From: an uncultured virus (IMG/VR IMGVR_UViG_640753051_000003)
Lineage: Duplodnaviria; Heunggongvirae; Uroviricota; Caudoviricetes
Reading direction: 5' to 3' (one strand)
DNA length: 33,085 nucleotides
IMG/VR virus record: IMGVR_UViG_640753051_000003
Shown here: positions 12,504 to 18,211 of the stretch, one piece after another
Layout of the letters: every line of letters begins with the position of its first letter
Position numbering within the stretch: position 1 is the stretch's first letter
Notes under the pieces: generated by a model
What the model was told of the DNA's origin: nothing
Database searches by the model: none
Seen by the model: the letters and a program-made list of their open reading frames with translations, nothing else
Made by a program: the position numbers and the translations under genes

Positions 12504-13004
12504 TCACAGTTCGGCATCCTCTGGCAAGACATTGAGGCTCATGCTCCCAGAGTGCTCGACACGCTCGATGAACATACCGAGGTGCTTGGCGAGCTTCTCC
12601 AAGGCGCTGTTCTTGTCCCAGACCTTAATCTTGTGGACGTGCTCGACCTCACCGTCGCCGGTGTTGCGGATCACCACTTCGACCGAAGCGACTGCTGCGG
12701 CTGTGTCATCATCCCACTCTTCGGGTCGAAGCAGCCTGCCGTTCGCATCGAACACGCGGCGAAGATCGGAGAAGCCGATACGAGACAGCTCTTTCAGAAC
12801 ACGTTCAACGGTCGCTTCCGCCTTGAGAGCGCCCTTACCCTGGATTTCGGCTACGCGCTCTTGAATGCTTTCATTTGCATTCAAACGTGCTGCATTTCCT
12901 CTGTTGGCTTTGAAGCCGGCGACGACATACGCCTCATCGACTGTATTGCCTTTCGCGCGGGCCTGCGCGAACTTCTCGTGCCGTGCGTTTTTCAGGATGG
13001 GCAT
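12504..13004 (-). CDS. terS: Terminase small subunit
   Basis: RHEKFAQ...AY..AG...AARL...VLKEL.RIGFSD...DK..ALEKL.KHLGMF. Confidence 0.93.
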   Translation of the reverse strand: MPILKNARHEKFAQARAKGNTVDEAYVVAGFKANRGNAARLNANESIQERVAEIQGKGALKAEATVERVLKELSRIGFSDLRRVFDANGRLLRPEEWDDDTAAAVASVEVVIRNTGDGEVEHVHKIKVWDKNSALEKLAKHLGMFIERVEHSGSMSLNVLPEDAEL

Positions 13005-13024
13005 GAGCTAACCTTGAGGCGACA

Positions 13025-13498
13025 ATGTATTTCCACGTGAGCGAAGAAGACTGGCAGGCTGGTGACGTAATCCAGCCAGGAAAATTCGGCAGAAGCATCA
13101 TCGAGACCTCTCAACCCTCGATAAAAGTGAACGTGGCCGGCGCACAGATATCCCCACTGGTCCGCAACTTAATGTGGGAATCCGCTCTAGAGGCGAGCAG
13201 GATCGCTTGGGTGCCAGACGCCCCGAGCCGAGGGTCCGTCGTTTTCCTCAACGAGACTTTGGCGCTTGCCCAACGTTTCCGCGACAGGTTCAATCAAAAC
13301 CATAGGATCTTCCGCGTCGCTCCTGTCGATGACAACGCCAACCGGCACCGAGGCGACGTCGCAATCTTTGAAGACGTTCCCGAACCGCTTTTCACCAGCC
13401 TGGCGGAGCGCTGTCGTCTGTATTGGGTTAACCCAGATCCACAGTTCCCTGAGATACTATGGGAAGGCGCCGTCCGGGTTGAGGCCGACGTCGAGTGA
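13025..13498 (+). CDS. DUF2441-like protein with predicted ADP-ribosyltransferase fold (moron)
   Basis: YFHV......GD.I.PG start, WE..LE..R....P..PSR...VF, YW...PEIL..G.V.V end; GAGG RBS. Confidence 0.7.
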   Translation: MYFHVSEEDWQAGDVIQPGKFGRSIIETSQPSIKVNVAGAQISPLVRNLMWESALEASRIAWVPDAPSRGSVVFLNETLALAQRFRDRFNQNHRIFRVAPVDDNANRHRGDVAIFEDVPEPLFTSLAERCRLYWVNPDPQFPEILWEGAVRVEADVE

Positions 13499-13588
13499 TT
13501 GACGTCCCCACCTCTACCCTTACCGGAGGCCTGTGGCCCTCGAGCATGCGCCACTGTTTAGACGGATTCTTTTTGAACGCTAGAGACC

Positions 13589-13675
13589 ATGGACAAAGCA
13601 GTCGAACGGATCGCGATCGCAGTGATCATCGCCTCTGCCTGCACGCTGGCGTGGCTGGTGTTTGCGTTCAGCTGA
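13589..13675 (+). CDS. 28-aa membrane micropeptide MDKAVERIAIAVIIASACTLAWLVFAFS
   Basis: Hydrophobic helix; weak AGAG RBS; same MDKA start as the 14033 ORF. Confidence 0.5.
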   Translation: MDKAVERIAIAVIIASACTLAWLVFAFS

Positions 13676-13823
13676 GCGAGGAAAAGATCAGCAGCCACTG
13701 GTATGTCGATCTCCGGACCACCTGATCAAGCCGGTAGCCGTTGGCCGCCCACTCGTTGATGAGCGCTTCCATGCCCGGCAGACCCCCGGGGCCTGAATCG
13801 TATTCGACGACGCGATAGGACAT
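13668..13823 (-). CDS. DUF4177-like small protein, copy 1 (51 aa)
   Basis: MSYRVVEY...INEWAANGYRL.QVV...W.LIF; GAGG RBS. Confidence 0.75.
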   Translation of the reverse strand: MSYRVVEYDSGPGGLPGMEALINEWAANGYRLDQVVRRSTYQWLLIFSSLS

Positions 13824-14032
13824 GGTGACCTCTTTGTGGGGAGTAGCCCGCCCGTACACTTCGGCGAGCGGCAGCGGGACTTTTTTATATGGGAGGGCGT
13901 GAGCTAAGCGATGCCTTTTAGCACGTATACCGTGCGCCACTCGCGCTGTCACCATCAACTATGACAGGCCCCGGTGAGGGAACTTCACCGGTGTTGCCTT
14001 GCTTTGCTCGCATTCATAGATCGTGTTGGGGG

Positions 14033-14170
14033 ATGGATAAAGCAGGCATCGCATTTATGGCACTAATACTCGTCCTCATCTTTCTCGTGATGAGCATCCT
14101 GGCAGTCGATCGAACATCGATAGAGGGGCACCCGAATACGCAGGCGCTGGTTCCTACCAGCTACCCCTGA
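14033..14170 (+). CDS. 45-aa membrane-anchored peptide
   Basis: MDKAGIAFMALILVLIFLVMSILAVDR...; upstream GGAAC-N19-TT motif starting at 13979. Confidence 0.55.
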   Translation: MDKAGIAFMALILVLIFLVMSILAVDRTSIEGHPNTQALVPTSYP

Positions 14171-14171
14171 T

Positions 14172-14249
14172 TCGTTGCGGCGACAGGGTTCGACTTGCGG
14201 CTCTCCAGCTTATGAAGCTGACGAGTTACCGGGCTGCTCTACGCCGACA
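14172..14249 (-). pseudogene. Degenerate tRNA-Met(CAT), initiator-like
   Basis: Minus strand TGTCGGCGTAGAGCAGCCCGGTAACTCGTCAGCTTCATAAGCTGG...TCGAACCCTGTCGCCGCAACGA keeps the fMet D arm and CAT anticodon, but the T arm is broken and there is no CCA. Confidence 0.75.
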
Positions 14250-14389
14250 TTGCGGCTGAAGATCAGCACCCACCGGTAGGTGGTCTTGTAGACGGCCTGG
14301 AATAGCTCGTAGCCCTTCGCGCGCCACTCGTTGGCGACACGATCGAGGTCGTCTTCTTCGCCTTCCACTTCCACAAAGCGGTAGTGCAT
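14210..14389 (-). CDS. DUF4177-like small protein, copy 2 (59 aa)
   Basis: MHYRFVEV...ANEWRAKGYELFQAV...W.LIF; GAGGAG RBS. Confidence 0.75.
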   Translation of the reverse strand: MHYRFVEVEGEEDDLDRVANEWRAKGYELFQAVYKTTYRWVLIFSRNVGVEQPGNSSAS

Positions 14390-14407
14390 CAGCGGTCTCC
14401 TCAAGCG

Positions 14408-14435
14408 AAAACCCGCCCCTGCGAACAGAGACGGG
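14408..14435 (-). terminator. Intrinsic terminator after the secreted-pair cassette
   Basis: CCCGTCTCTG-TTCG-CAGGGGCGGG followed by TTTT. Confidence 0.7.
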
Positions 14436-14481
14436 CTGGCAATGTCAGAACGGAAGGCGGCTAACGGCCTGCATCCGTGAT

Positions 14482-15459
14482 TCAGCGGGCCGGAAGTTCT
14501 CCGATTTCCTCGCGCTCCGGTGCGGCGATCACCCTGTCAGCCTTCTCCTGGGCTTGCGCCGAAGGCTGGTTGCAACAACTATCAAAAACAGTCTTTGCGC
14601 GCTCGGTGGCTGCGGCTCTTTCTGCACCGCTCAGTTCGTTGTATGGCTCCGTCTCGAAAGAGAATTTGCCGGAATCGAATGCCTCCCCTTTGGATTGTTG
14701 GGCGACCATGGACCACATGGCCGATGTAGTCATGTCTTTTTGCCCGTAGGCGCTGAGGCCGGTCAGCAAGGCGGCAAGCTGGGCGCCTCTCAGATTTCCC
14801 TGTTCAGTCAGATGCACCGCTTCGTTCAGCCAATCCTTGTAAACGGCGGGATCGACGTCGAAGGCCTTGTTGGCAAGCTTGGCTTCGGCCCGGGCGGCAT
14901 CTACGGCGCGGAAATCCTCGAACAAGACAATGCCCTTGGCATTGACATCCCCCGCGGCCGCGGCTTCGCGCATCAAATCGCCGGAATTGCGGATGTCTTC
15001 CGCGGTGACACCGCTGCACTGCACCTCCATCGTGCGAATCTTGAAAGCGGTGGCGGCGACAAGATCTTCGAAGTTCCTGTCGCCGCTTTTTTCCAGTTTT
15101 GCGGCATCGGCCAGATCCTGGTCGTGATGGCTCCGAGATTCGAAATAGTCGGCGCATACCCGCGCCAGAATCGCTGCGCCGTAGGCGGGGTGCCCCCCGT
15201 AATCCTTGGCCTGCAATGCATATTGCGCCGGATCCAACAGATCAAATCGAACGGGAGCTTGAGGGTCGGCAGCCAACTCCTCATTGTTGGATATGAGGAT
15301 CTGATTCGGGATCGCAGGAGATTGCTGCTGGGAAATCTGTGGCAACACCTCGGCCATTGCTGCAATTCCATCCGACTGGACCGCCAAAGCTGTAAGCGAT
15401 ACGAGAAGGACGCGCAGCAATTTCTTTTTGCCTGTTGCCTTTGAGTCGTAGATCGGCAT
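14482..15459 (-). CDS. Exported alpha-helical protein with Sel1-like repeats
   Basis: Basic plus hydrophobic N-terminus; MREAAAAGDVNAK, EQGNLRG and GQKDMTTSAMW segments; LS..E...A..RA......CC tail; AAGGA RBS. Confidence 0.75.
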   Translation of the reverse strand: MPIYDSKATGKKKLLRVLLVSLTALAVQSDGIAAMAEVLPQISQQQSPAIPNQILISNNEELAADPQAPVRFDLLDPAQYALQAKDYGGHPAYGAAILARVCADYFESRSHHDQDLADAAKLEKSGDRNFEDLVAATAFKIRTMEVQCSGVTAEDIRNSGDLMREAAAAGDVNAKGIVLFEDFRAVDAARAEAKLANKAFDVDPAVYKDWLNEAVHLTEQGNLRGAQLAALLTGLSAYGQKDMTTSAMWSMVAQQSKGEAFDSGKFSFETEPYNELSGAERAAATERAKTVFDSCCNQPSAQAQEKADRVIAAPEREEIGELPAR

Positions 15460-15534
15460 TTTTTATCCTTGGATTTTGACGCCAGCCCACTGCTTTCAAT
15501 GGGCCGGCCGAAGATTCGAACGGACAAATGCAAT

Positions 15535-16305
15535 TCAAGATTTCACGTCGGCAGCCAGTTCCTTGGCGTAGGCGGACATATCCCTGCCGTCATCGTTGAA
15601 GGTAACCAGCTTCTTCTCAGCGGCCGCTTGCGCACGGGCCCTGCTATCCCAGAGTTCGTCGCAGAGTATGGACTGCGTGCGGGTCGAGCAGCCGTTTCTG
15701 CGCCATTCGCTCGACCAATACGCCGCATCGTTCAAGGCGCGCGCGATATCGCGGTAATTCTTCTCCATGGCCAGAAATGCGTTATTTACTTTTGTCTTGT
15801 CGTCGACGATTTCGTCGTAGTTCGGCTTATCGGTCCTTTTCGCCTTGTCGATGGCATTGTGCGCAGCAGACATTTCGGAATCGGTCTTTTTGAGAGTCGC
15901 CTGCGTCGCCCATCCGCAGGCGCTGGCGGCGGCGGCCACGCTCCCGGACTTGACGATTGCCTTGATGTGCGACGCAGCTCCAGGCCCGTCGGCCGGCTTC
16001 CACGTGGCTACAACGGCGGCAGCGGTAGAGCCGCAAAGATTGGTGAACACAGCCTTGGTAAAGGCGCCCTTGCTTTCTCCGGTTGCCACGGTAATGATGA
16101 TATTGACCACGCCAACCGCGCTCCAGCCAGCCCAGCCGCGCCAATCGAAATATTCCTTGATCAGATTTGCGGTGGTCCAAATACCGCTCAGGATCTGGCC
16201 ATTGTCCGGCGTGACAGCATGCGCCGGCCCTGCCAGCAAGCTGCCCGACAATAGCCAGGCACAGGCGATTTTTGAAAGCTTCCTCGGTGATTTTTGCTTA
16301 TTCAT
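15535..16305 (-). CDS. Secreted hypothetical protein (signal peptide, hydrophobic Gly/Ala region, coiled coil)
   Basis: MNKQKSPRKLSKIACAWLLSGSLLAGPAHA/V signal peptide; the frame stays open upstream to the DUF4177 remnant ATG at 16431. Confidence 0.8.
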   Translation of the reverse strand: MNKQKSPRKLSKIACAWLLSGSLLAGPAHAVTPDNGQILSGIWTTANLIKEYFDWRGWAGWSAVGVVNIIITVATGESKGAFTKAVFTNLCGSTAAAVVATWKPADGPGAASHIKAIVKSGSVAAAASACGWATQATLKKTDSEMSAAHNAIDKAKRTDKPNYDEIVDDKTKVNNAFLAMEKNYRDIARALNDAAYWSSEWRRNGCSTRTQSILCDELWDSRARAQAAAEKKLVTFNDDGRDMSAYAKELAADVKS

Positions 16306-16403
16306 GTTTTTATGTCGCGCTTCGTTTTGAGTCGGCGAATTAACCGAAAAGTTCATGCTGGGTTGGCGGATGTGGTGCCCTTGCCGGGCATACTCGTAGG
16401 CTA

Positions 16404-16460
16404 AATCGTATTCCACGACGCGGTAGCACATGGTGACCTGTTTCTGTGCGAGTAGCACCG
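16404..16460 (-). repeat. Truncated duplicate of the DUF4177 copy 1 5' end (matches 13796-13850)
   Basis: AATCGTATTCCACGACGCGGTAGCACATGGTGACCT versus AATCGTATTCGACGACGCGATAGGACATGGTGACCT; MCYRVVEYD versus MSYRVVEYD. Confidence 0.85.
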
Positions 16461-16610
16461 ATCGGTTCGCTTTTTCGAGGGGTGCCGGGACTAGTTACAT
16501 GGGAGGCGGCTGGCTGAATGCTGCCTTCCAATCGCCTTGTACAATACGCCACTCGCGGCTGGCCACCTTGATTGAAGGCTTTTGTCCAACATTACTGTTA
16601 TTTCATGTGA

Positions 16611-16680
16611 GGCAGCAGGCCCGGTAATTGAACCCGGTCTTTCGTGGTTAGCCACGCGGTTTACCAGTTGCCCTGCCTGC
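16611..16680 (-). pseudogene. tRNA-like remnant with a collapsed anticodon loop
   Basis: GCAGGC/GCCTGC acceptor stem, AACTGGTAAA D loop, CGTGG-CTAA-CCACG stem, CCGGGTTCAATTACCGG T arm. Confidence 0.5.
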
Positions 16681-16772
16681 GACGGTGCGAGAGTATTGGA
16701 ATAAAGAAAAGCGATGATTATGATTGCGTGACGGTCGCCTAAGCAGTGAGAGCCGTTTGAGGGAGCGCATCG

Positions 16773-17024
16773 GTGGAAAACTCCAGCGCGGACGCCGCTA
16801 GCCGTGTAAGAGCAATAATCATCGAGCAGTTGGGCATCAACCCTGCCCGGGTTGTGGACGACGCATCCATCGTAGATGACCTCGGCGCCGACTATCTCGA
16901 AGTCGCTCAAATCGTCATGATGATTGAGGACGAGTTCAATATCGAAATTTCAGATGACTTGGCCGAAGCCGTGATCACGGTCGGAGATGCAATTTACGTG
17001 GTTATGTCGAAAACCGAGAGCTAG
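16773..17024 (+). CDS. Acyl carrier protein homologue lacking the phosphopantetheine serine (DLGADYLE)
   Basis: AcpP-like RV..II.EQLG...DDLGAD.L.....VM.IE.EF.IEI.D..AE...TVGDA; GAGGGAG RBS. Confidence 0.88.
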   Translation: MENSSADAASRVRAIIIEQLGINPARVVDDASIVDDLGADYLEVAQIVMMIEDEFNIEISDDLAEAVITVGDAIYVVMSKTES

Positions 17025-17162
17025 CCGCAGCAGAGCTAAAATGGGCCAGTAGATTTTGGCCGCATTTCTCCTATGCGCCGAATGTGAAGTTTCGGCAGCG
17101 GTCCGGCGAGTATTCCCTCTGTGAGGTCCGCAACTGGACAACCGCAAATCACTGCAGGAAAT

Positions 17163-17780
17163 CTATACGGCTTGCCGAAGATTTTCAACCGCCGCGTCTG
17201 CCGTGAGACTATTCAGTTCACTGATAATTTTCTGCACCCGCTCTTTGATCTGCGGGCTTAGAGAATCTATAGCCCTCTCCGCCTGGTCGACCATTGAGAC
17301 GCGGGCTTTTCTTCCCTTAGGCAGGATCTTGCGAAGTTGGCCGCGCAGGTGCTGGATCTGCTCGTGGCGCTCGTTCTCCTTCCGGCAGTGCTGTTCGTAG
17401 AGGAAGGCTTGCCGGCGCTCGTGCTCGGCGAAATACAGAGCCTCGATCGTTGCGCTGGGAAACTCGAGCGGTCCATAGTTGGCACCGCGCAGGAAACACA
17501 CGGCACCGTCGACGCGGCGGAGCTCCTCGAAGTTCAACCTCGGCAGGTTCACGAAGGCATACCCGACCAGGAACGGAAACCGCTTCTCGATGATCTCGTT
17601 CGTCCGATGGTGCTTCAACTCCTTGTAAAACGACGGCATGAAGATGTCGAAGCCGTCCTTGCGGCAGTTCCGCTCGATGATGGATTCCATACGCCGACTC
17701 TCCGGGAGGCGCTCGTCCACGGCCGCCATGCGCTGATACCCGGGGGCCGTACGAATTGCGTACCAACGTGATCTGCTCAT
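17163..17780 (-). CDS. NusG-family late antiterminator
   Basis: RWYAIRT.PG...F.P...PFLVGYAFV NGN domain; last gene of the early operon (lambda Q position). Confidence 0.88.
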   Translation of the reverse strand: MSRSRWYAIRTAPGYQRMAAVDERLPESRRMESIIERNCRKDGFDIFMPSFYKELKHHRTNEIIEKRFPFLVGYAFVNLPRLNFEELRRVDGAVCFLRGANYGPLEFPSATIEALYFAEHERRQAFLYEQHCRKENERHEQIQHLRGQLRKILPKGRKARVSMVDQAERAIDSLSPQIKERVQKIISELNSLTADAAVENLRQAV

Positions 17781-18211
17781 GATTTTCCCTCGTTCTTCTT
17801 CGGCAATGACCGAGCATGGTGGTTTCGGCAGTAGCGACCCGTTGTTTCCGCCGCACAGAACAGGTACGGGCCGCCGGTGTTTAGGGGCCAGCAGCATTCG
17901 CGGGCCGAGAGATGGTGGAGGGGCTTTGCGGATTGGAGCCGCTCAGCGTCATAGGCAGTCGCCGCGATCTCCGGTTCCCGCTTCAGTTCCGGCGCCAGCT
18001 TGCGAGGCCGCGTCGTCTTCGCTTGGCCGGGTGCGCGAGACTTCTTCCCAGAGTCGCCGCGCCACGGGAAGAGACCGCGTTTGCGGAATGCCAGTCCGAC
18101 AATGACGTTGCGGCTGACGCCAAAGCGCTTGGCGATCTGGGAGGCAGGGAGATCATCCCTCCAGAGCTTCGCAGCAGCCTCGATGTCGACGGTGCGGTGC
18201 TGGATGGTCAT
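17777..18211 (-). CDS. GcrA-family regulator
   Basis: LW....ASQIA..FGVSRN.I.G...R helix-turn-helix and L....CCWP...FC......YC..H C-terminal domain. Confidence 0.88.
   Translation of the reverse strand: MTIQHRTVDIEAAAKLWRDDLPASQIAKRFGVSRNVIVGLAFRKRGLFPWRGDSGKKSRAPGQAKTTRPRKLAPELKREPEIAATAYDAERLQSAKPLHHLSARECCWPLNTGGPYLFCAAETTGRYCRNHHARSLPKKNEGKS

Follow-up and report, generated by a model that had tools for sequence, protein, structure and literature searches.

A mobile two-gene cassette for exported proteins in a prophage, with a possible role at the bacterial envelope

What do two genes for exported proteins contribute when they lie between the late antiterminator and the terminase of a prophage? 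The question is raised by a stretch of 33,085 nucleotides (nt) from an uncultured virus (Caudoviricetes; IMG/VR record IMGVR_UViG_640753051_000003), which was analysed as a whole and is referred to here as the window. The window is a Sinorhizobium-type prophage, and its minus strand leads from a NusG-like antiterminator gene through a two-gene cassette to terS and terL, and then to the portal, protease, head, connector and tail genes. An original prediction, made from the sequence alone, took gene 1 of the cassette for a secreted toxin and gene 2 for its Sel1-like immunity protein. Here, we describe a strict pairing of the two genes and a difference in their rates of change, and we tentatively favour a role for the pair in conflicts at the bacterial envelope.

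The cassette has the following parts, with protein lengths in amino acids (aa):

15535-16305, minus strand: gene 1, 256 aa, an exported all-helical protein of a family without a name
16216-16305, minus strand: gene 1 signal peptide, codons 1-30, cleavage AHA/VTPDN
14482-15459, minus strand: gene 2, 325 aa, an exported protein of a second family without a name
15466-15470, minus strand: gene 2 ribosome-binding site AAGGA, 6 nt ahead of the ATG, read from the sequence

The pair and its distribution

Loci around relatives of gene 1 were gathered from species genomes, IMG/VR and metagenomes. Gene 2, or what remains of it, lies directly downstream of gene 1 in all 21 loci with downstream DNA (15/15 genome and virus loci, 5/5 metagenome loci, and locus L035), a count in which many loci represent one Sinorhizobium prophage group and which leaves aside the five of ten metagenome loci that end at gene 1. 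The co-occurrence of homologues, put forward with the original prediction as a check, is thus borne out. The two genes are on the same strand and 0-90 nt apart (15/15 loci). Independent lineages with the pair are Polaromonas, Duganella, the metagenome loci L023 and L030, and the genome G575. Identity is 60% for gene 1 and 64% for gene 2 in Polaromonas, and 41-52% and 38-40%, respectively, in Duganella; the Polaromonas, Duganella, L023 and L030 loci stand at 29-60% identity. Order and adjacency of the genes are kept across alpha- and betaproteobacteria.

The existence of the pair is not restricted to phages. No phage genes were found around it in the non-phage chromosomal loci L003-L007, L030 and L035. 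Neighbours in non-phage loci include genes for an AraC regulator, OmpA-family, LprI-domain and transglutaminase-like proteins, a GGDEF response regulator, the CCA-adding enzyme and an rve transposase, and none of the non-phage copies examined has genes for lysis or for type I, type II or type VI secretion systems (T1SS, T2SS, T6SS) alongside. The Rhizobium leguminosarum copy has nitrogenase-type genes on one side and fixNO on the other, and an IS110 transposase is next to it. Both genes are rare, gene 1 being present in one of 400 Rhizobiaceae species genomes and gene 2 in three of 401 genomes of the family of Duganella. For a distant branch of the gene 1 family (P0056-P0065), a locus search with three sequences gave no confirmed locus.

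Because the loci include betaproteobacterial chromosomes, the unit is a horizontally mobile two-gene operon that is not phage-specific. In the window it is a prophage moron: an accessory insert between the antiterminator gene and terS, with a terminator-like hairpin of its own, that is also found in unrelated contexts. Its GC content is 0.57, against 0.60-0.63 in the flanks.

Gene 2 is damaged in some genomes. In genome G002 (R. leguminosarum), gene 1 is intact (full-length, 8.5e-97, no stops) and gene 2 is a remnant (model positions 1-54), with no other copy. In Sinorhizobium medicae, an intact 291-aa gene 1 (U8C40_15335) adjoins a 182-aa gene 2 fragment (U8C40_15340). A further chromosome has a gene 2 (P0030) with a frame-shifted N-terminus. 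No account of either protein family was found by keyword in the full-text literature.

The two proteins and their rates of change

The open reading frame (ORF) of gene 1 is open from GTG 16458 to 15535, with a conserved start at ATG 16305 (MNKQKSPRK..). The product starts MNKQKSPRKLSK, followed by a hydrophobic stretch and then by AHA/VTPDN. This was read as a Sec signal from sequence and alignment, given a positively charged n-region, an h-region and an A-x-A/V-T-P-D junction that is conserved in most of the family. The mature part of 226 residues is predicted to be all-helical and is rich in small residues. Trp, Gly, Ala, Ser and Thr are abundant in its N-terminal domain, which carries a conserved CG..AAG....W.P motif and the pair Cys91/Cys130. 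Sequence and alignment therefore confirm the Sec signal, the Trp/Gly/Ala-rich region and the paired cysteines of the original prediction.

Among 32 family members, Cys91, Gly92, Trp102, Pro104 and Cys130 are invariant, and no other residues are; Trp61, Gly65, Ala95, Trp132, Cys215 and Cys224 are nearly invariant. Since the protein is exported and has conserved cysteine pairs, it would be expected to form two disulfides. In the AlphaFold2 model, residues 123-255 form a long antiparallel helical hairpin, with Cys215 and Cys224 at its tip and a predicted local distance difference test (pLDDT) score of about 60-88. This hairpin corresponds to the long coiled coil that had been predicted.

Hydropathy speaks against a membrane protein. 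The Trp/Gly/Ala-rich stretch WRGWAGWSAVGVVNIIITVATG has a Kyte-Doolittle mean over 19 residues of 1.42, against the usual 1.6 for a membrane span. Outside the signal peptide, only 2/32 family members exceed 1.6, and 10/32 are without any 19-residue window of at least 1.2. The idea that gene 1 encodes a pore-former, which had been based on the allele in the window, is thus not upheld by its family, in which the hydropathy of a membrane span is seldom reached. A mature protein with three membrane spans was also considered; family hydropathy argues against it, as does the placement of Cys91, because this invariant residue would sit deep in a span.

One search gave 26 homologues of gene 1, and another, of 1.84 billion proteins at E<=0.001, gave 33 representatives. 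Of the latter, P0066 (795 aa, seven repeats) was rejected as a spurious low-complexity match. Full-length members are nearly all about 250 aa in size and have a common layout. For gene 1 and gene 2 alike, no match was found in Pfam (at E<=10 too), PHROGs, NCBIfam above noise, PADLOC or PDB sequences. The NCBIfam matches that did appear (cobA at 20.5 bits against a cut-off of 167.75, and others) are attributed to chance, as are the coiled-coil matches that were all that PDB sequence searches with both family profiles returned (E of at least 0.33). Structural look-alikes of gene 1 in the ESM Atlas, with a best score of 0.79, belong to no named family, and in the fold search the generic helical hairpin at residues 154-256 alone was matched, by 151 chains at Z>=8.

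Gene 2 encodes a 13-residue cytoplasmic tail, one N-terminal hydrophobic segment, a Gln/Pro-rich linker and a Sel1-like helical solenoid. The hydrophobic segment has a Kyte-Doolittle value of 1.67, the lowest in the family (1.8-2.2 in relatives), and is 7 residues shorter in the window allele than in P0029 and P0031. For these two reasons it may be a cleaved signal here (ALA/VQ) and not an anchor, relatives of the protein looking membrane-anchored. The sequence DYGGHPAY, Cys102, Cys148 and Cys295-Cys296 are invariant in 11 sequences. The CC pair at 295-296 lies 29 residues from the end in the window and 3-11 residues from the end in 9/10 other aligned rows. Both the export of gene 2 and its terminal CC had been anticipated. 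The family is small, with 16 matches among 5.8 billion clusters.

Gene 2 had also been described as having Sel1-like helices, and this description may hold by fold but fails by sequence. The AlphaFold2 model is a helical solenoid with a pLDDT of 80-95 over residues 90-298, and ranks 1-4 in VIA-align are all Sel1-repeat proteins: LpnE (Z 10.0), c5321 (9.1), AlgK (8.7) and an Oxalobacter Sel1 protein (8.0). The alignment with LpnE covers 144 residues at a root-mean-square deviation of 4.2, and the best Foldseek E-value is 0.32. Neither gene 2 nor two distant relatives match the Sel1 family of Pfam (PF08238), even at E<=10. 'Sel1-like' thus seems a fair name for the modelled shape, without membership of the Sel1 family by sequence.

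A distant paralogue of the C-terminal half of gene 2 is found in a Duganella metagenome-assembled genome (G006, L033:1880-3336; hhalign 97%, E 4.8e-11). It has the QC, AAAxG, W..V..Q..G and terminal CC motifs and an N-terminal anchor, and the DYGGHPAY part is missing. An ATGA overlap joins its start to the stop of a gene for an exported parvulin-type prolyl isomerase, which has a GDPD-family gene upstream; no gene 1 relative is present. As a lead from one case, this arrangement is more in keeping with a membrane-bound helper or partner of exported proteins than with a dedicated antidote.

The two genes change at different rates. For the mature part of gene 1, the ratio of non-synonymous to synonymous polymorphism (pN/pS) is 1.27-2.13 in 10/10 pairs of five alleles. 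For gene 2 it is 0.34-0.47 in 6/6 pairs, at a silent divergence similar to that of gene 1. The ratios of non-synonymous to synonymous changes (N:S) differ between gene 1 and gene 2 in 6/6 pairs (Fisher's test, p 0.003-0.033). Gene 2 is under purifying selection, whereas in gene 1 amino-acid changes keep pace with or outrun silent ones. At the 90% cluster level in Rhizobiaceae, gene 1 falls into about 15 clusters and gene 2 into about 5, and gene 2 does not co-diversify with gene 1. Both families are rare and nameless in every library searched, and the pairing rule and the asymmetry of rates are new.

Borders, RNA libraries and the surrounding prophage

Three further features mark the ends of the cassette:

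14402-14437, minus strand: terminator-like hairpin, with a 12-bp stem, a UUCG loop and a short U-rich tail, 45 nt past the gene 2 stop
16306-16355, minus strand: gene 1 leader, about 50 nt, A-rich, without a Shine-Dalgarno sequence, common to the R. leguminosarum locus L002 in the upstream alignment
16401-16446, minus strand: DUF4177-like 5' remnant, with ATG 16431 and a decayed ribosome site, at the upstream junction and outside gene 1

The homology shared by different carriers opens some 50 nt ahead of the ATG of gene 1 (or precisely at its codon 2) and stops about 24 nt after the end of gene 2; homology to L002 begins at the leader. The view of the cassette as a two-gene unit closed by a terminator is supported by the presence of both minus-strand ORFs and by the hairpin. 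Stem and loop occupy 14410-14437, with UUCGCUU after them. The feature as a whole (14402-14437) runs into the ribosome site of the following DUF4177-like gene, and its 91-nt fold has a z of -1.95 (7/200 shuffles equally stable), although a terminator pattern scan alone stays at chance level (7 sites against 4.8 +/- 2.4 expected). Among 11 aligned loci, the hairpin is kept in the six with the same downstream context (6/6), and the other five have different hairpins. About 200 nt past gene 2, a second type of carrier (loci L010, L012, L013 and L015) has three GC-rich hairpins and a short ORF (..YRNHRFPIEIVAHAVW..), which we take to resemble the start of an insertion-sequence transposase; Pfam gave no match for this 73-aa ORF.

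As had been noted originally, gene 1 has no ribosome-binding site of its own. No Shine-Dalgarno sequence lies ahead of ATG 16305 (leader ..GCGCGACATAAAAACATG), and the same holds for the R. leguminosarum copy. It had been proposed that gene 1 instead captured the translation signal of a truncated DUF4177 start at 16431. The remnant is real: positions 16401-16446 are 87% identical over 46 nt to 13793-13838, the start of a DUF4177-like gene with its pre-ATG region included, and ATG 16431, 42 codons ahead of the gene 1 start, shares its frame without an intervening stop. Of the eight loci that bear the remnant, seven have its ATG in frame. In L010, however, one extra A before the gene 1 ATG puts it 127 nt upstream (mod 3 = 1) and out of frame, and RNA contigs of runs X5 and X10 have the same additional base at 16306. 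In L015, a 21-nt duplication and three single-base insertions leave the middle of the extension in another frame (P0009 compared with P0010). No remnant is present in L002, L012 or any of the betaproteobacterial loci, the last of which have GGGAG or AGAGG ribosome sites of their own before the same signal peptide. Because the frame relation is not conserved and the remnant is missing elsewhere, the DUF4177 start has not been captured; it is a scar with an accidental frame link, and gene 1 starts at its own ATG 16305.

In two lineages, gene 1 is without its native ATG, and translation enters the signal peptide from foreign sequence; recombination at the gene 1 start is therefore recurrent. The L012 type (L012:5890-6765; five protein clusters) has a 35-residue extension beginning MHQISAPS.. 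or MDHFSAPS.., and P0019 (R. johnstonii) has a short extension like the first residues of a fixN-type ORF (L002:9644-11266). A sigma-70 pattern scan of minus-strand positions 16306-16772 found no promoter; the whole 4.8-kb region has 2 matches against 1.8 expected, a result that says little for an alphaproteobacterium.

The stretch is matched in RNA libraries of 14 studies, and four runs from three studies were compared. One contig bridges gene 1 and gene 2 in 4/4 runs. The bridging contigs are long and clean (for example, 4715 and 3032 nt without differences) and have mean depths of 70, 86, 185 and 291, against 0-20 for the terL contigs of the same runs; the depth of the cassette contigs is 4-15 times that of the terminase contigs. 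In run X2, a contig over 14312-17343 has a depth of 85.5 and its neighbours 5-6. Plain carry-over of DNA is disfavoured because the contig depths are uneven. These values hint that the cassette island is transcribed in cells not making virions, that is, in lysogenic rather than late expression, and so weigh lightly against the earlier suggestion that it is expressed with the late genes. In runs X5 and X10, a separate RNA contig over 12920-14124, which covers the ORF at 13025-13498, is also deep (145 and 242).

The prophage genes around the cassette are as follows:

Right end of the window, plus strand: tyrosine-integrase gene, recombination genes and repressor
Before the GcrA-like gene, minus strand: methyltransferases, O-like replication gene and resolvase
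17777-18211, minus strand: GcrA-like gene (Pfam GcrA 1e-10; phrog_16311)
17163-17897, minus strand: NusG-like antiterminator (phrog_25909, 8e-102)
16773-17024, plus strand: acyl-carrier-protein gene (Pfam PP-binding 6e-10; phrog_5934, 2e-14)
16600-16690, minus strand: decayed tRNA-Met(CAT) gene, about 300 nt upstream of gene 1
14210-14389 and 13668-13823, minus strand: two intact DUF4177-like genes (phrog_21144, 1e-26 each)
13025-13498, plus strand: ORF without known function, between the DUF4177-like genes and terS (phrog_5663, 4e-9)
12504-13004, minus strand: terS

In the longest-ORF reading, the GcrA-like and antiterminator genes (17163-18211, minus strand) overlap by about 120 nt, and the true start of the antiterminator is probably further inside its ORF. 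The phage-borne acyl-carrier-protein gene lies on the opposite strand between antiterminator and cassette, under the same deep RNA-library contigs. The small DUF4177-like gene is present as two intact copies and one 5' remnant within 3 kb ahead of the terminase, and the remnant is closer to the distal copy than to the adjacent one.

The tRNA-Met gene is intact in L015 (5601-5673) according to ARAGORN and has an 8-nt-anticodon-loop form in L008, L010 and L013; in the copy of the window, 4 nt of the anticodon loop are missing and the stems contain mismatches. Another tRNA-like sequence with a CAT anticodon loop (14176-14248, minus strand) overlaps the 3' end of a DUF4177-like gene; it reaches 28.6 bits with the Rfam tRNA model, against a gathering score of 29, and was not called by ARAGORN. 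The IMG/VR provirus record G001 is 98.5% identical to the window over 33 kb and extends it by 4 kb, past the tape-measure gene; both end before the region that follows the tail genes. A megablast of 13000-18000 against the GenBank phage collection gave no match.

Possible roles of the pair

The explanation that we rank first, tentatively and at less than an even chance, is that the cassette is a lysogenic-conversion envelope module with a role in envelope-level conflict, for example in the exclusion of superinfecting phages or in protection from periplasm-acting attack. Both proteins would fold with disulfides in the periplasm. The Sel1-like gene 2 protein, as the predicted partner, would bind the conserved N-terminal domain of the gene 1 protein and hold or mature it on the periplasmic side of the inner membrane, leaving the variable gene 1 helices and the hairpin exposed to meet a changing target. 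The pair would be made in the lysogen and act at the envelope in a conflict, most likely by blocking something that crosses the periplasm, such as the entering DNA of a superinfecting phage or a periplasm-acting toxin; a released bacteriocin appears less likely than such a block. The evidence that speaks for this explanation is the prophage context, the pairing, the mobility and rarity of the unit, the rates, the fold, the coupling of the paralogue to an isomerase and the hint from RNA libraries.

The kind is a familiar one, that is, prophage cargo for envelope proteins with a helical-repeat partner. Envelope superinfection-exclusion proteins include T4 Imm with the periplasmic Sp, HK97 gp15 and lactococcal Sie2009. 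They are small, exported or membrane-anchored, encoded by prophage or early genes, active in the periplasm or membrane and carried as accessory cargo, and fast evolution in an arms race is expected of them. Unlike these, gene 1 and gene 2 also live together outside phages, and the likeness lies in general features alone. Lambdoid morons such as bor, lom and toxin genes lie downstream of the late antiterminator. The cassette is like them in being an accessory unit with its own terminator between phage modules, of lower GC and maybe expressed in the lysogen. It differs in that it consists of two genes of nameless families that are also found in a symbiosis region and in betaproteobacterial chromosomes. 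The periplasmic Sel1-repeat regulator ExoR of Sinorhizobium binds the periplasmic domain of its partner. Gene 2 differs from ExoR in having no Sel1 match in Pfam, in its accessory and rare occurrence, and in a partner that is a soluble exported protein instead of a sensor kinase.

Several observations weigh against an envelope conflict module. A pN/pS above 1 in gene 1 is individually significant in only 2/10 pairs (p 0.012 and 0.026), which are not independent, and relaxed constraint on gene 1 may be an alternative to fast adaptive change. The AlphaFold2 model of gene 1 is trustworthy for the hairpin only, residues 1-138 having a pLDDT below 50. The Z-scores of 8.0-10.0 for the Sel1-like matches of gene 2 are below about 13, the level at which helical repeats become specific; in this range such repeats may match through their arrangement only. 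For a role in defence in particular, PADLOC has no match for gene 1 or gene 2, and most of the non-phage copies have ordinary chromosomal genes as neighbours, a setting not called for by an anti-phage role. The depth of an RNA contig is one figure per contig, which gives no strand, level or ends and may include DNA carry-over. Moreover, the deep contigs also cover the plus-strand acyl-carrier-protein gene and the decayed tRNA gene, either of which could drive their depth.

In a fuller version of the envelope explanation, the pair would be a novel exclusion or defence module in which a conserved Sel1-like holder presents, in the periplasm, a hypervariable, disulfide-stapled helical protein that intercepts phage ejection proteins or periplasm-acting toxins. 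Prophages, insertion sequences and symbiosis regions would be the vehicles of such a module among soil proteobacteria. This version we regard as conceivable and clearly less probable than the general one.

Next in rank, and doubtful to a similar degree, is a role without microbial conflict. Gene 1 would encode a periplasmic or surface-released factor for fitness or host interaction that benefits root-associated bacteria, and gene 2 a membrane-bound helper for its folding or anchoring. The named hosts are soil and root bacteria (Sinorhizobium, Rhizobium, Neorhizobium, Duganella radicis and Polaromonas), and one copy has the nitrogenase-type and fixNO genes on either side. Purifying selection on gene 2 is as would be seen for a helper, and the link of its paralogue to a periplasmic prolyl isomerase points the same way. 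A Sec signal alone, however, stops short of crossing the outer membrane, and no secretion genes are linked to the pair. A pN/pS of at least 1 in gene 1 would be unusual for a factor of housekeeping type, and the extreme rarity in the species genomes surveyed (1/400 and 3/401) also tells against this role.

The toxin and immunity protein of the original prediction fare somewhat worse, and we consider them unlikely. Gene 1 would be a periplasm-acting or membrane-damaging bacteriocin released at prophage lysis, with gene 2 as the Sel1-like antidote. The interval between antiterminator and terminase is a site where some phages carry toxins. The strict pairing in the order of toxin and then immunity gene would suit this arrangement, as would two products that face the periplasm, a patchy and mobile distribution, and the fast amino-acid evolution of gene 1. 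There are precedents for Sel1-repeat proteins as immunity proteins of T6SS effectors, namely PA5086-PA5088 against PldB and Sel1E against VgrG4. PA5088 binds PldB via its Sel1-like repeats (PMC13736854), and Sel1E protects against VgrG4 (PMC7108748). Gene 2 resembles these proteins in being an exported helical-repeat protein that is encoded right after its presumed partner, and its best structural matches are Sel1-repeat proteins; in the precedents, the repeats bind the partner. In contrast to them, gene 2 has no Sel1 match in Pfam and no T6SS genes nearby, and gene 1 has its own Sec signal.

The loci with a damaged gene 2 speak against this view, since a toxin would not be expected to outlive its antidote: gene 1 survives intact beside the destroyed, single-copy gene 2 of G002 and beside the gene 2 fragment of S. 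medicae. Gene 2 does not co-vary with gene 1, and no known toxin domain was detected in gene 1 with Pfam, NCBIfam, PADLOC or PDB sequences. No part for receptor binding or translocation is evident, and the non-phage copies examined are without neighbouring genes for release or delivery. The hydropathy of the mature family lies mostly below that of a membrane span, and the RNA contigs hint at expression without induction.

Pore-forming colicins would be the nearest model for a membrane-damaging protein. The cassette is like them in being a two-gene unit that encodes a helical protein with moderately hydrophobic Ala/Gly-rich helices, and a coiled-coil hairpin of the type found in receptor-binding domains is among the 151 generic matches of gene 1. 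It is unlike them in that gene 1 has no colicin match in Pfam and a family hydropathy below that of a membrane span. To our knowledge, colicins have no Sec signal. Colicin immunity proteins are polytopic membrane proteins, and gene 2 instead encodes a periplasmic solenoid.

A set of lysis accessory genes (holin-, antiholin- or spanin-like) is very improbable. In its favour are the position between late antiterminator and terminase, which recalls lambdoid lysis genes, the bitopic build of gene 2 relatives, whose helical domain is periplasmic, and the coiled coil of gene 1 with its cysteines. The pair is, however, also found in chromosomes without surrounding phage genes, and no endolysin gene adjoins it in any locus examined (the phage's own lysis genes being outside the DNA covered, that is, the window and 4 kb in G001). 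Nor does the mature gene 1 protein have a membrane span, PHROGs gave no matching lysis family, and the RNA contigs hint at uninduced expression.

Competition and phage resistance of rhizobia in soil and on roots are shaped by prophage cargo genes, most of which are unannotated. Among these, the cassette stands out by a clear rule, as the two genes are always together and in the same order, and by a clear asymmetry between a fast partner and a conserved one. If the pair turned out to be a toxin with its antidote, it would represent a new class of bacteriocin. If, on the other hand, it does serve exclusion or defence at the envelope, a field dominated by cytoplasmic systems would gain a periplasmic, Sec-dependent type, and the cassette would be relevant to the selection and protection of inoculant strains.

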